From a virus (taxonomy: Duplodnaviria; Caudoviricetes), in IMG/VR virus record IMGVR_UViG_3300017651_000007, positions 1-26,025 of that record: a DNA stretch of 26,025 bases. One strand, 5' to 3'. This document shows, one piece after another, positions 17,620 through 25,706 of this stretch; positions within the stretch are counted from its first letter, which is position 1, and the number at the start of each line of letters is the position of its first letter. A model generated the notes under the pieces. The model ran no database searches. It was not told the DNA's origin and worked only from the letters and a program-made list of their open reading frames with translations. The position numbers and the translations under genes are program-made.

Positions 17620-17656
17620 GTCACTCGTTACTTGGGCGACATGACGAGAAAGAAGG

Positions 17657-17944
17657 CCACACCCAATAGCCGGGATTTCGTATTAGCCGACCATCCGTCT
17701 CTGTCTCATGTCCTGAGACATGGGACAGGCCACGCCTTTACGCGGTGGCTGCCCTCAACCTAGACGGAGACGACTACCGTCCGAACGAGGTTGCATCCCT
17801 TCCCTAACGGCCGAGGTACGAACGAGCCGTAGCGAAACGCTACGTCTCTCCCTCCATTGTTACCCGGGCTCGCCAGTGTCGTCGGCGCGGGATGTCCCGA
17901 ACTTCCTCAAGAGTCGCGCGACTCCTGCGGTCGGCTAGGTGTGA
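17657..17944 (-). ncRNA. rnpB: RNase P RNA, compact type-A-like
   Basis: CR-I GAGGAAGUUCGGGA, CR-IV AGACGGAUG and CR-V ACGAAAUCCCGGCUAU. P1, P2, P3, the P4 pseudoknot, P5, the P6 pseudoknot, P7, P15 and P16 all pair in canonical order. Confidence 0.9.
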
Positions 17945-18072
17945 ACATCCTTGATAGCTTCCTTCCAGCACGTCATGCAGAGAAGGGCCTCGAAGAGGGA
18001 TGAGAAGAACGCTGGCCGCTGGTCGCAGCCGTAGCAGGCCGGTAGGCCGTTGCAGTCACCCTTCAGGGTCAT
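17935..18072 (-). CDS. Small CxxC...CxxC protein (45 aa)
   Basis: GGAGG close to the ATG at 18072; CYGC...CMTC; 3' end overlaps RNase P helix P1. Confidence 0.45.
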   Translation of the reverse strand: MTLKGDCNGLPACYGCDQRPAFFSSLFEALLCMTCWKEAIKDVHT

Positions 18073-18165: not shown

Positions 18166-18168
18166 AAG

Positions 18169-18289
18169 AGAGGCGAGTCGTGCGGAACAACACGCCTCTG
18201 GACGGTCCCTACCAGTACTTCCTTCGGGTACCTAACTGACGCTTTACCTACTGTCTCGTACGCGACTCCGCATTCAGGGGCGTCAGCTA
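18169..18289 (-). ncRNA. Candidate structured spacer RNA with loop-loop pairing
   Basis: TAGCTGACGC/GCGTCAGTTA stem and AGAGGCG/CGCCTCT hairpin; GCGGA/TCCGC complementarity between the two loops. Confidence 0.5.
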
Positions 18290-18553: not shown

Positions 18554-18695
18554 AAACGCCTCAAACCAAGGGCCGAGGCGAGTGTCTATCCAGGGAGTTC
18601 CCATCCATCCCACCCTGGCCTACCGGCGTCACCCGGCTCCCTAACCACCAGCTACTAGACGTAGTAGACGACTACGGATTTCACTGGAGTCTTTG

Positions 18696-18890
18696 TCACC
18701 GCAAGGCGAATCGTCCAACTGACGCGAGGTCGAGACAGACGATGCACTGCTCGGCCTCACTCGGAGGCGGTACGCGCTTCGAGATCTTTGCCCCACAGAG
18801 AGCGTGATCGTCAGAGCCGCGTATATGCTTGACTCGTGCCCGAGTCGGAGTTTGGGACTCCTGCGGAGCCTCTAGTAGGACGGTGCTCAT
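18696..18890 (-). CDS. Small Zn-binding protein, DUF3039-like
   Basis: H...ALCG...CxxC spacing and MSTxxLE start resemble actinobacterial DUF3039 proteins. Confidence 0.55.
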   Translation of the reverse strand: MSTVLLEAPQESQTPTRARVKHIRGSDDHALCGAKISKRVPPPSEAEQCIVCLDLASVGRFALR

Positions 18891-20201: not shown

Positions 20202-21587
20202 CTACAGCGCTGCGTTACGACGTACTGTGTCGAAGTCCACCTCGTTGAGGAGGACGCCGTTCTCGAACACCGTGACTAGCTCGTCAGGGAGACCGGTGTC
20301 TCCGCCGACGGTGCGATATCCGTTCTCATCCTTGACCAACGCCAGGCGCCCGCGCTTCGACGCCTTGGAGGTGTCAAGGGGCTTCTTGTAGACCTGGTGC
20401 CATGCCCCGTCGCGCTCCTGCGCGCTGCACTTGAAGGCGAAGCGCTGCATGTCGCGATTGACCTTCTGGTGCAGACCGCCGCCCATGCCGAAGACCATGT
20501 TCTCGGCGCTGAAGCCCTCGGCCGCCAGACGACCGAGGATGCGGACGATGCCGTGAGAGTCGATGCCGTCGCCCCAAAGCACGCGAACGTGCGGGTCGAG
20601 TACCTTGAAGCCCTTGGAGTTGACCGCGCCGCCGAACGACTCGTAGAGTCGTCGCACGATCCACAGGGTCAGGCCCTCGGGCGTCTCGTGGTTCGGCGTA
20701 GTGGAGTCCGGACGCACGACGAATACGCCGTCGCGATCGAGGACTTGCTTGCGGTACGTCGTGCAGATGGCATCCACGAAGCGGTAGATGTCGTAGCTGT
20801 CGGCGACGACGGAGAGGATCCCGGTCGGGTGCTCGCGGAAGAGCTTGTCCACGACCTTCCATTCGCCCTCCTCGCCGAGGGCCGTCATCACGGAGTGCTC
20901 GGTGGCGGGCACCGAGAAGGCGAGACTCGTGATGTCGGCGCCGTAGTGGTTCACGGCGAAGAGCATCCCGAGGAGGGTATCCGTGCCCACCGAGTTCACG
21001 AGGTGTGCCGCTCCGGCAATGGAGGCAGACTCGTCGCTCGTGGAGCCTCGGTAGCCGAAGTCGTGGAGCATGAAGGGTAGGCCGTCGCGGCTGTCGGCCG
21101 TCATGTCAAGGAAGGCCCCGATCGAGTCGATGGTATGACGGCTGAGCGTCGCCACCGTACTCGGGTACCACACGTGCGTCAGGAGCGACTCCACGGCGTT
21201 GGTTAGCCAGTAGCATTCCGGACAGGTGTTCTCGACGGTCATCAAGACGTTGCCGGTCGGGACGACCGTGCCCTCCTGGACCGCCTTGATGCGCAGCGGC
21301 AGACAGCCGCCGTGCACGTCGATGATGTGGTTCCAACCGGCCGCGTTGAAGAGGCTTTCGTCGCCGAAGTGGTACTTTGCGACCAGCGCGGCCTCGGTCA
21401 CGTCGGCGGGGGTCACGACGACGCCTTCGAGCTTGCGAAGGATGGGCTGTAGGCCGAAGAACACGGTGTAGGGGAACTCGGCCCCCGTACGGCTCTCGAA
21501 GTAGGAGTAGACGCCGGTCGTGTCGTCCGGGTACTGCTTCCAGTGGTTGAGCTTGTAGCTGTCCGTCGCGAGGATGAGATTGGTCAT
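20202..21587 (-). CDS. nadV: Nicotinamide phosphoribosyltransferase (NAMPT)
   Basis: Motifs TDSYK.NH..QYP, WYPSTVAT, LHDFGYRG, VPATEHSVMT, SVVADSYD, RPDS and GMGGGL. Confidence 0.96.
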   Translation of the reverse strand: MTNLILATDSYKLNHWKQYPDDTTGVYSYFESRTGAEFPYTVFFGLQPILRKLEGVVVTPADVTEAALVAKYHFGDESLFNAAGWNHIIDVHGGCLPLRIKAVQEGTVVPTGNVLMTVENTCPECYWLTNAVESLLTHVWYPSTVATLSRHTIDSIGAFLDMTADSRDGLPFMLHDFGYRGSTSDESASIAGAAHLVNSVGTDTLLGMLFAVNHYGADITSLAFSVPATEHSVMTALGEEGEWKVVDKLFREHPTGILSVVADSYDIYRFVDAICTTYRKQVLDRDGVFVVRPDSTTPNHETPEGLTLWIVRRLYESFGGAVNSKGFKVLDPHVRVLWGDGIDSHGIVRILGRLAAEGFSAENMVFGMGGGLHQKVNRDMQRFAFKCSAQERDGAWHQVYKKPLDTSKASKRGRLALVKDENGYRTVGGDTGLPDELVTVFENGVLLNEVDFDTVRRNAAL

Positions 21588-22489
21588 CCGAGGAGCCTCC
21601 CACGAAGATAGACGAATAGTTCCTGGTGGACAGGGACAAGGGAGTCTTCCGCCAGCGCGTGCCAGTCGAACCAGCGAAGCTCGGCTATGTCAGATCCCGG
21701 CGTGGGCTTGCCGCTCAGGTGCGTAGCCAGGAAGAGCATCGTCTTGATCTTGTCCACCTCGCCCCGATAGCGCCAGTCATCCACGAGCATGGACGTGACG
21801 TACTTCGGATCGGTGATCTCGATGCCCGCCTCCTCCATCACCTCTCGGCGGGCGTCGGCCTCGTAAGTCGGCGACGTGGGCTCGGCGAAGCCGCCGATGA
21901 AGCGGAACTTATCCTCGTAGGGCTTGCGGCCGAGCAGCAGCTTCGACCCGTCCTCGTTGAGGATGGCCACATCGACGGTTGCATAGTTCGTCGGGAAGCG
22001 GCTGTAGGCGGCCCAGACGACGCCAGCGCGGAACTCGGGCGACGCCTTGACGGAGCGGGCGGAGATAGCCTTGCGCGTCTCCGAGCCGGAGACGAAGACC
22101 TCCTGGACAAGCTCCCGTGTGGGAAGGTTGCCGTGATAGCGACGGATGAACGAGTCGCGGCTGCCGTAGAGGACGACCGACTGCGCGGGCGTCGTCACAT
22201 CAGCGATCATCTCGTCCAGCCGCTTACTCCAAGCCACGTCGCTGGGGTGATCCTTCACGTAGAGAACGTTCACGTCGGGGAAGCGCTCCAGGATCATCTG
22301 CTTGCGCGCTTCGAAGTCGAGCGGATTCTCTCGCGTGACCATGACAGGCGAGAGCCCCAGGAAGAGGATCACCTTGCTGTGTGCATCACAGACGGTCCGG
22401 ATCAGGTCAATATGAGCCTGATGTAGCTCAGGGACCTGGAACCGACCGACAATCACTCCTACGTCGTAGGAGTCGGTCTTTACCTGCAT
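21584..22489 (-). CDS. natV: Bifunctional NMN adenylyltransferase / Nudix ADP-ribose hydrolase
   Basis: GRFQ..LHQAH (HxxH), NPL.F..R, SGSETR, and the Nudix box GGF-x9-ARREVMEEAG; ATGA overlap with nadV. Confidence 0.93.
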   Translation of the reverse strand: MQVKTDSYDVGVIVGRFQVPELHQAHIDLIRTVCDAHSKVILFLGLSPVMVTRENPLDFEARKQMILERFPDVNVLYVKDHPSDVAWSKRLDEMIADVTTPAQSVVLYGSRDSFIRRYHGNLPTRELVQEVFVSGSETRKAISARSVKASPEFRAGVVWAAYSRFPTNYATVDVAILNEDGSKLLLGRKPYEDKFRFIGGFAEPTSPTYEADARREVMEEAGIEITDPKYVTSMLVDDWRYRGEVDKIKTMLFLATHLSGKPTPGSDIAELRWFDWHALAEDSLVPVHQELFVYLRGRLLG

Positions 22490-22706: not shown

Positions 22707-22714
22707 GAAGTGAA

Positions 22715-22927
22715 TGAGAGCGCGGCCCTGGCTAAGGGGCATTACGGCGGGCGTCCACCCGATACATCCCGTGGCCTGCGGGACAACGGGCAACTACTGT
22801 CCGCCTTTTCTACGGGTTCAACCTTGAGCCCTCTAGCGCGCCGCCGTCTATTGCTTGGCTTGCCAAAGCCGAGCATCACCGGGCCTAGCAGCCTAGAGTC
22901 GGCCGTCGAAACCACCTCGTGCTCTCA
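22715..22927 (-). ncRNA. Candidate 213-nt multi-domain structured RNA
   Basis: Closing stem TGAGAGC/GCTCTCA, several internal helices and a potential pseudoknot; no convincing ORF. Confidence 0.6.
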
Positions 22928-24280: not shown

Positions 24281-24352
24281 AGGCCCGAGCCGGAATCGAA
24301 CCGGCGTAAACCGCTTTGCAGGCGGTTGGCTAAGCCATTCACCCATCGGGCC
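24281..24352 (-). tRNA. tRNA-Cys(GCA)
   Basis: GGCCCGA/TCGGGCC; loop CT-GCA-AA; U73. Confidence 0.92.
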
Positions 24353-24355
24353 GGG

Positions 24356-24614
24356 TGCGAGACGAGGGATTCCACCCTCAACCCCTGAGTAGCGCGCGGG
24401 CGCACTTTCGGTCTGAAATGTCCGCCGCTACTCCTGAGAACCGTCCTCAAGCCGCTAAGCCGCACACGCTGGCTCCAGGCCGCTAAGCCCTTCGCCCATC
24501 CCTCGGCGCCCAGGTTGCTAACCCTGCCTCGGGACTTCTGGCTGTGCCGGGGTCCAGGACACCCGTTGGACGTGCGTTAGAGGCTTGCGCTACCTCTTAT
24601 TCCGCCAGTCTCAT
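24356..24614 (-). ncRNA. Candidate 259-nt tRNA-mimic RNA with a giant variable-region insertion
   Basis: Acceptor-like ATGAGAC/GTCTCGC-A, Leu-type D-arm TG-GCG-GAAT...AA-CGC, T-arm-like GAGGG-TGGAAT-CCCTC, and many internal hairpins. Confidence 0.6.
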
Positions 24615-24639
24615 AGGGACGATGGCCGTCGTCCCCAAG

Positions 24640-24712
24640 CTCCCCCGGTAGGATTCGAACCTACGACCTGTCGGTTAACAGCCGACCGCTCTGCGCACTG
24701 AGCTACAGGGGA
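24640..24712 (-). tRNA. tRNA-Asn(GTT)
   Basis: TCCCCTG/CGGGGGA; loop CT-GTT-AA; G73. Confidence 0.92.
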
Positions 24713-25006: not shown

Positions 25007-25103
25007 CGGAAGGAGTGGGATTCGAACCCACGGACCAGCGGTCATTTAGCCGCCGACCTCTCGGTTAGCAACCGAGCGCATTCAGCCTCTCTGCCATCCT
25101 TCC
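25007..25103 (-). tRNA. tRNA-Ser(GCT)
   Basis: 97 nt with an extra-long variable arm; loop TT-GCT-AA. Confidence 0.92.
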
Positions 25104-25177: not shown

Positions 25178-25268
25178 AAGCGGGGACTTTCACCCCGAAT
25201 CGGTGGCGTTCACCCGTACGGCCGCCTCTTGGCGATCCTCCGGCTCCCCATCGGGAGCGATGTAGTAG

Positions 25269-25706
25269 TGGAGGTGGCGGGAATCGAACCCGCGTCTTCC
25301 GTGCGCCTATCCAGGCAGTTCTCTAGCAGCTTGCCTCGTAAGGCCGAGGGCGCCCACCCCTTGTTACGAAGGGTGATTCCGGGCCGTCTTTCCAGCCTGT
25401 CTTGCACAACTAAGGGGACGGACAAGCTCCGAAACGCCTGTCGTCTTTCCACCACCCGAGTTCTGCGTCGTTCCCAGGAGGCACTCGGGAGCGCCGGGTT
25501 CGACCACGTATTCTGTTGCCCCGTTACGTGAGACGGCGCGCAGGATTACTAAGCCAGCGCGAGGTCGCGAGAAGCCGCCTCAGCAAGAATTGCCTCGGCC
25601 TCCGCGACGGGATCATACGTGCCAGTTATTGGCTTTGCCAGGTCAGGTGTGGCGACCGCTGCACTGCTCGGGACCGCTTCTCACAGAATCGAAGCCGGAC
25701 ACCCCC
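25269..25706 (-). ncRNA. ssrA: tmRNA
   Basis: 5' GGGGGTGTCCGGCTTCGA; 3' GACGCGGGTTCGATTCCCGCCACCTCCA; G3:U70; resume context ATAACT-GGC; tag frame ends LALA-TAG-TAA. Confidence 0.93.

Follow-up and report, generated by a model that had tools for sequence, protein, structure and literature searches.

We find that the minus-strand segment at 24353-24637 of the window (the whole 26,025-nt stretch of DNA analysed, a fragmentary virus record that is 16% complete) is, on comparative evidence, a genuine conserved folded RNA of 285 nt including its leader hairpin, and that its sequence and predicted fold make it a divergent, uncatalogued and enlarged "twin-UAGC" subfamily of the manA RNAs, not a new class. 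It is very probably homologous to manA, without formal membership of the Rfam family. The RNA is very likely free-standing and probably oligomerises, and the overall reading that we favour, with somewhat more confidence than doubt, is of a processed, free-standing manA-class RNA that would oligomerise through kissing loops in the manner of cage-forming manA. manA has been a riboswitch candidate since 2010 and has recently been reported to form RNA-only cages. The twin-UAGC subfamily, which broadens manA to soil actinophages, its cultured actinophage carriers, an RNA contig and a tRNA-core reading of manA are new here.

The window contains packaging genes, NAD-salvage genes, a tmRNA and a minus-strand tRNA array (25 tRNAs by ARAGORN and one more by Rfam), and its terminase is approximately 32% identical to those of Rhodococcus phage E3 and of large Mycobacterium and Gordonia phages, from which we infer an actinobacterial host. 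The manA-type RNA occupies the whole gap between tRNA-Asn(GUU) upstream (24639-24712, minus strand) and tRNA-Cys(GCA) downstream (24281-24352, minus strand), both placed by ARAGORN and Rfam scans, such that 5' maturation of tRNA-Cys would create its 3' end. No convincing promoter or terminator was seen near the element, and a 79-codon ORF overlapping it was rejected, as it runs into tRNA-Cys. The original prediction, made from the letters alone, was of a Leu-type tRNA mimic of a possible new class with a giant structured insert, which tRNA finders would miss. Its quoted motifs are all present in the order given, on the minus strand, the feature is genuine, and ARAGORN indeed makes no call there; however, the element is larger than proposed, a leader hairpin and a pair of twin hairpins having been overlooked. 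Elsewhere on the minus strand, the tmRNA (25266-25706) scores at the Rfam cut-off, was overlooked by ARAGORN and has a 151-nt soil RNA contig inside it; a tRNA-Ser(GCU) with a long arm (25007-25103) was likewise overlooked by ARAGORN; and the NAD-salvage pair, a nucleotidyltransferase-NUDIX fusion and a nicotinamide phosphoribosyltransferase, lies within the tRNA array (20202-22489).

Relatives were not recovered by blastn of the window copy against phage records, or by searching viral contigs for the exact pattern of its T-arm. With the neighbouring NUDIX protein as query, 11 loci were obtained. In two of them (L001 and L003), tRNA-Asn and tRNA-Cys stand 240-270 nt apart with a related sequence in the gap; these two were located via a neighbouring gene and synteny, independently of any motif. 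Patterns of shared motifs enlarged the set to at least 17 distinct uncultured relatives once duplicates were merged; non-members (repeats or coding DNA lacking the 5' core) were removed by eye, with an HMM also used in the first two scans (rows removed per scan: 20 of 27; 114 of 121 among the matches listed; 1 of 12; 4 of 10; and 3 of 3 genome matches). A covariance model of the 17 relatives, with the window excluded, has its best match in 56.8 kb at 24354-24641 (31.5 bits, E 2.9e-8), where the calibration of E is rough and the test partly circular, given that most relatives were chosen by a motif common to the window. Through blastn with one relative, cultured carriers were found in the Microbacterium phages A3Wally, Zooman, Big4, Pumpernickel and Cece (111-136 bits) and in Curtobacterium phage Yappy (68 bits), giving at least 17 uncultured relatives and 6 in cultured phages, from soil and from actinobacterial phages. 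The Microbacterium foliorum phages A3Wally, Zooman and Big4 are thus cultured carriers in which the RNA can be tested; a hypothetical CDS is annotated across the RNA in Big4 and is absent from the other five cultured records. We did not count 43 Streptomyces phage records that contain only a single UAGC hairpin, two examined examples of which score 7-8 bits.

In Rfam, the window copy has no match to manA (RF01745) even at E 10, yet 6 of the 17 uncultured relatives match the model over positions 1-192 at 34.6-51.4 bits (5 of 11 in the first batch and 1 of 6 in the later one), as does the Yappy copy (41.6 bits, E 6e-11). Overall, the matches to Rfam manA run the full length of the model in 7 of 23 relatives (E 1e-5 to 1e-13), all of them under the gathering cut-off of 55.2 bits, which no relative reaches; none of the 5 Microbacterium copies gives a match at E 0.01. 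No other Rfam family covers the element in the relatives scanned, and RNase P, SRP, raiA, GOLLD, ROOL, group I intron, Y RNA and tmRNA were rejected, having no Rfam support over the element. Consequently, the scan against Rfam that had been suggested as a check leaves the window itself unmatched, but the matches among its relatives tell against the proposed new class.

The resemblance to manA extends well beyond these scores. When a relative is aligned to RF01745, the P1 hairpin, core, closure, P8 and P9 fall in register and the middle domain is skipped. Measured against 98 distinct usable copies of canonical manA (out of 120 loci, 18 of which were too short), both groups have the same order of helices from P1 to P9; a P1 with a GACG or UAGC-type loop (GACG in 69 of 98 canonical copies); the UG-RCN-GAA core, inserted hairpin and AA-NGY closure; a short closing helix stacked on the 3' hairpin (P2 and P9; 5 bp in 87 of 98); A15 with U48 (93 of 98, A15 being fixed by the search pattern); the P6 module; and L8-L9 complementarity, which within the subfamily is uneven from copy to copy. 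They differ in that the subfamily lacks the canonical GUGGU/ACCA hairpins (P5 and P7 loops) and possesses a nested covarying helix and twin GCU[UAGC]GGC hairpins instead, in length from acceptor to tail (209-260 nt versus approximately 170-190 nt), and in range, canonical manA being found in marine cyanophages and the subfamily in soil and actinobacterial phages. In the rows of the original manA alignment given in supplement 5 of PMC2864571, some likewise lack the P5 GUGGU and P7 ACCA loops, the RAY-stem-AARU-stem-GAG (P6) module is also present, and one row has UAGC as its P1 loop, GACG being usual there.

The fold was tested across 18 sequences (the window and 17 uncultured relatives; mean column identity approximately 52%) by comparing own with cross pairing over 10000 permutations that ignore relatedness. 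As the MAFFT alignment misregisters P3 and P4, and RNAalifold gives only 20 pairs, pair counts were taken from anchored parsing instead. Helices P2, P9, P4 and P8 each give 0/10000 permutations, with own scores of 12.8 against 8.7 for the acceptor-like helix and 13.6 against 9.5 for the T-stem-like helix, while in the 3-bp D-stem the pair 12-23 varies between AU (8), UG (5), GC (4) and CG (1). This bears out the expectation that homologues would conserve the acceptor, D and T pairings, and with it the view of a real non-coding RNA with a tRNA-like frame, invariant core residues and large inserts. The support is comparative, since the window copy alone folds no better than shuffled sequence (z -0.83; 43 of 200 shuffles equally good). 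Its unconstrained minimum-energy fold is nonetheless the homologue-supported one (-122.9 kcal/mol, versus -118.1 kcal/mol when the originally proposed helices are imposed). That fold retains the proposed D-loop hairpin and the GAGTAGCG/CGCTACTC and TCCC/GGGA helices, whereas two others are not supported: the local GTCCA/TGGAC hairpin has a mean pair probability of 0.01 and 35/10000 permutations (versus 0/10000 for CGTCC/GGACG), the CCCC/GGGG enclosure has 0.00 and 158/10000, and the two overlap by one base and would cost approximately 4.5-4.8 kcal/mol.

Reading along the minus strand, the RNA opens with the P1 leader hairpin (24614-24637), the first hairpin of the Rfam manA model, whose loop CGGCCA has a self-complementary core; a hairpin occupies this place in 18/18 sequences, with loops GACG (4), CGGCCA (3), UAGC(U) (2) and others (9). 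The acceptor-like P2 follows (5' strand 24608-24612), which covaries but is of 5 bp and one wobble, not the 7 bp first proposed (5 bp in 14 sequences, 4 bp in 3 and 6 bp in 1). P3 (24573-24607) forms a tRNA-like D core, identified from invariant columns and pair counts (U8 G9, a 3-bp D-stem, G13·A22, A14, A15 and A21), in which a predicted hairpin (24579-24597) replaces the D-loop. At the position of the anticodon stem, the 5' strand of P4 (24568-24572) pairs with 24442-24446 as the long-range helix CGTCC/GGACG, which relatives keep and which the minimum-energy fold of the window copy contains, though at a pair probability of only 0.24. P4 encloses the large insert, which would therefore lie at the anticodon position and not, as first thought, at that of the variable arm, where there appears to be a separate 62-nt arm. 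Within the insert are an extra hairpin of the window copy (24549-24565; minimum-energy fold, and by eye not seen in the 17 relatives); region a (24543-24547), which pairs with a linker at 24462-24466 (1/10000 permutations, the window segment being placed by hand); the P6 module (24498-24535), extended by a hairpin at 24511-24526 with a third UAGC loop; and the twin GCU[UAGC]GGC hairpins (24479-24488 and 24451-24460), which are closed by U-G in 15/17 and U-A in 2/17, and whose invariance is partly imposed, since they doubled as a search anchor. The long P8 arm (24380-24441) has L8 near 24410-24414 and U48 as its last base, and is followed by the T-arm-like P9 (24364-24379), with 5 bp directly before the closing helix in all 18 sequences (4/5 pairs in one copy) and in the window a 6-nt loop, L9, without TTCRA. 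The 3' strand of P2 and a 6-nt tail without CCA (24353-24363) end flush against tRNA-Cys. The window copy is the longest of the set (260 nt from acceptor to tail, versus 209-239 in relatives) as a consequence of its extra hairpin, P6 extension and long P8.

A potential basis for assembly lies in the loops. According to the text of preprint 10.64898/2026.07.01.735769, manA pentamers join via L5-L7' and L8-L9' kissing to give octamers, decamers and a 60-mer. Taking helix numbers from the Rfam structure, and with a mapping of loops onto that preprint that is our own, L8 would be the variable-arm loop and L9 the T-loop. These loops are more complementary within a sequence than between sequences (own 10.3 versus cross 7.8, 0/10000 permutations, two control pairings being null). 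The L189 group shows this strongly, five Microbacterium copies only weakly (scores 7-10), and it is marginal in the window copy, where the best L8-L9 helix borrows stem bases and approximately 3 bp come from loop bases alone (by eye). Region a may be the positional counterpart of the manA L5-L7 pairing; the helix there is nested and covarying (1/10000), and so can form within one molecule, covariation being unable to separate intra- from intermolecular pairing. Additionally, L192 has UAGC as its P1 loop in place of the usual GACG, and the text of PMC516450 implicates GACG loops in retroviral RNA dimers; by analogy, UAGC loops may kiss one another via their GC dinucleotide.

Taken together, we envisage the following. 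A conserved, covarying structure lies within a phage tRNA array, and what directly follows it is not a protein gene; it would be co-transcribed with the array and, if general tRNA maturation applies, released by RNase P cutting before tRNA-Cys and by trimming of the tRNA-Asn 3' end. The RNA itself would be a poor substrate for RNase P, CCA addition or synthetases, because its acceptor and T stack is of approximately 10 bp, not 12. Its vestigial D/variable core, judging from the invariant residues, would set the angles of the arms, and the T-loop would pair with the variable-arm loop (L8-L9), which we take to be the subunit-joining contact of the manA cryo-EM cages and which covariation partly bears out, with the UAGC and P1 loops as further candidate self-kissing sites. 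Given that L8-L9 covaries and that such candidate loops exist, oligomerisation into rings or closed shells is the most likely outcome. We would offer only as speculation that, in the course of infection, the particle accumulates together with the phage tRNAs and acts as an accessory, multivalent scaffold to which RNA or RNA-handling proteins bind or in which they are sheltered. Two other phage RNAs that are often near tRNA islands, GOLLD and ROOL, form RNA-only cages according to the text of 10.1101/2024.12.08.627333; both are two to three times longer than the manA-type RNA, and the Rfam models of GOLLD, ROOL and raiA match neither the window nor any of the relatives scanned.

Several alternative hypotheses may account for parts of this pattern. 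CsrB and 6S are protein-sponge RNAs, and a monomeric manA-type RNA could by analogy use its invariant UAGC hairpins to bind a host or phage protein. All relatives retain two copies of an identical 10-nt hairpin, a third UAGC loop appears at differing places (in P6 of the window copy and in P1 of L192), and invariance without covariation fits recognition by a protein. However, the replacement of GACG by UAGC at P1 fits RNA-RNA kissing, L8-L9 covaries, and the invariance of the hairpins is partly due to the search patterns, so that we consider a sponge unlikely.

The tRNA-like core bears on a second alternative, that of a mimic or decoy for anticodon nucleases, synthetases or EF-Tu. In the 17-sequence alignment, whose members were selected on another region, U8, G9, C11, G13 and A14 are invariant columns; in the full set, U8, A14 and A21 are present in 18/18, and G13·A22 and a purine at 26 in 17/18 each. 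The pair 15-48 is AU in 9, GC in 7 and UU in 2 of the 18, a pattern that needs no more than one or two changes along the tree, and A-U or G-C at this position fits the Levitt-pair rule. By a crude parse, the full D-core signature occurs in 5 of 261 phage tRNAs (2/9 Ser, 3/16 His and 0/31 Leu) and, position 21 being A in 18/18, the Leu-type label gives way to likeness with Ser-type (class II) and His tRNAs. With these the manA-type RNA shares U8, G9, C11-G24, G13·A22, A14, A21, a 5-bp T-stem, a long arm at the variable position and A15-U48 or G15-C48 (16/18); it differs from them in lacking an anticodon loop, the D-loop GG, TTCRA and CCA, and in its acceptor of 4-6 bp. For a decoy, then, speak the retained D core and 15-48 pair, the long arm, the T-stem stacked on the acceptor helix, a 7-nt T-loop in 7/18 and the location among tRNAs. 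Against it, there is no anticodon loop, as originally noted, the acceptor is of 4-6 bp, TTCRA and N-CCA each occur in 0/18, a hairpin in place of the D-loop would leave no elbow, and the T-loop sequence tracks L8 and not the tRNA consensus. An intron-containing tRNA, which the original prediction named as a match that would refute it, receives no call either (ARAGORN -i, 0/18 at default; with relaxed thresholds the isotypes called are inconsistent and fall on either strand). Given the short acceptor and the missing anticodon loop, TTCRA and CCA, it is unlikely that the RNA is aminoacylated or serves as an anticodon decoy, and we give the mimic as a whole quite a low probability; the version that survives best is uncharged binding of SerRS via the long variable-position arm. 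Of the functions first proposed, that of a scaffold is better supported than that of a decoy.

This core suggests a tRNA origin of the manA fold. tmRNA and bacterial Y RNA (YrlA) are also tRNA-like frames carrying other domains, and their tRNA-like domains keep the acceptor/T half or the D/T elbow, whereas the manA-type RNA appears to keep the D/variable core and lose the elbow; their family models have no match over the element, the tmRNA of the window being separate. We tentatively propose, as an idea that we think rather less likely to be right than wrong, that the manA class, including the 60-subunit cage, is a domesticated Ser/His-type tRNA in which the D/variable core acts as a hinge and the D-loop, anticodon arm, variable arm and T-loop are interchangeable kissing-loop modules, and that the RNA of the actinophage subfamily, with UAGC self-kissing loops and once freed by host tRNA-processing enzymes, forms particles inside infected cells. 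The word "tRNA" is absent from the main text of the manA cryo-EM preprint (10.64898/2026.07.01.735769), its figures and supplement aside, and no paper calling manA tRNA-like was found in the literature searched, which lay outside most subscription journals.

A third alternative follows the annotation of manA itself, that of a riboswitch or leader acting in cis: potential 5' UTRs are the setting that Weinberg et al. 2010 (PMC2864571) give for manA, 92 of the 98 canonical copies lack a downstream tRNA in their 400-nt flanks (6/98 have one), and two of our 18 sequences (L195 and L196) precede a ribosome-binding site and start codon. The window copy does not share this position, as it is followed by tRNA-Cys and the first ORF of at least 80 aa begins 402 nt further on, and all 6 copies in cultured phages lie between two tRNAs and end no more than 8 nt before one. 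Among the 18 sequences, 9 have an upstream tRNA at 22-33 nt with only P1 in between, 6 have a downstream tRNA at 4-8 nt, and 8 have no tRNA within 100 nt. The subfamily is mostly outside 5' UTRs, and some members of manA itself are flush against phage tRNAs, such as those of S-CREM1 (likewise outside a 5' UTR) and S-SSM7. A position beside phage tRNAs is already in print for manA in the text of PMC9964418, and related literature includes PMC12968392 and 10.1101/2020.02.04.933952. Being wedged between tRNAs argues against a cis role there, and we regard the riboswitch reading as improbable for this RNA.

In the soil metatranscriptome run X3, from a second study, a 243-nt contig matches 24386-24628 with 0 differences, which weakly places the manA-type RNA in an RNA library: it is one low-depth contig that shows presence and not ends, strand or level, and its 15 letters on the P1 side are too few to show that P1 is attached. 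Run X3 has no contig cover over the protein genes, missing cover in contigs proving nothing. A DNA contig from run X1, which may be the source sample, also covers the element with 0 differences.

It might also be supposed that an independent tRNA-derived family has converged on manA, given that the window lacks a direct Rfam match, that the middle domain differs, and that reciprocal scores are weak: a model of the 17 relatives ranks two cyanophage manA copies second and third (approximately 14 bits, E 0.002), barely above tRNA-Cys (11.0 bits) and tRNA-Ser (10.2 bits). Yet features that tRNAs lack are shared with manA, namely the P1 hairpin with GACG or UAGC, the D-loop hairpin, the 5-bp acceptor, the P6 module and a tail of A-C-C type, and full-length matches to RF01745 reach E 1e-12 or lower, making convergence a poor prospect. 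Least probable is a decayed tRNA or structured spacer merely aiding array processing, which the unremarkable fold energy and the RNA's absence from the closest phage would allow, but which copies outside arrays, the RNA contig and helices that covary at approximately 52% mean column identity speak against.

The phage closest by terminase (87% identity, 95% complete, with the same tRNA order) has 55 nt at the position of the RNA and no match to it elsewhere in its sequence; the manA-type RNA is therefore dispensable. This 55-nt spacer (L012, 2103-2157) has a similar tail end and a P8-like helix, and its reading as a deletion remnant was rejected as not significant (83 of 1000 shuffles equally good).

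Further stretches of the window's minus strand may merit attention. The ORF-poor segment at 17625-17990, upstream of the endolysin gene, has a z of -2.8 against shuffles and no Rfam match, and is possibly another structured RNA. The 219-nt spacer between tRNA-Glu and tRNA-Leu (22709-22927), predicted to fold with its ends paired (z -0.6) and unmatched in Rfam, is a candidate for a further tRNA-punctuated RNA. Two long unannotated spacers within the tRNA array (18168-18288 and 18556-18888) have no Rfam match at E 3, and part of the first presumably resembles an SRP RNA loop. Among other phages, Streptomyces phages Jay2Jay and Samisti12 (L341 and L342, approximately 380-645) possess a structured stretch of another kind directly before tRNA-Asn, partly under a hypothetical CDS; it comprises one UUAGCGGC hairpin together with a long-range helix whose pairing is compensated. 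In L186, on a contig shared with L035, the RNA is flanked on both sides by tRNA-like genes with irregular anticodon loops, and in the A3Wally record (L336) tRNA product names disagree with their anticodons (e.g. Val with gtc). Finally, six copies outside tRNA arrays (L189, L193, L195, L196, L199 and L204) have in common a conserved short ORF and hairpin, 30-330 nt upstream of the RNA.
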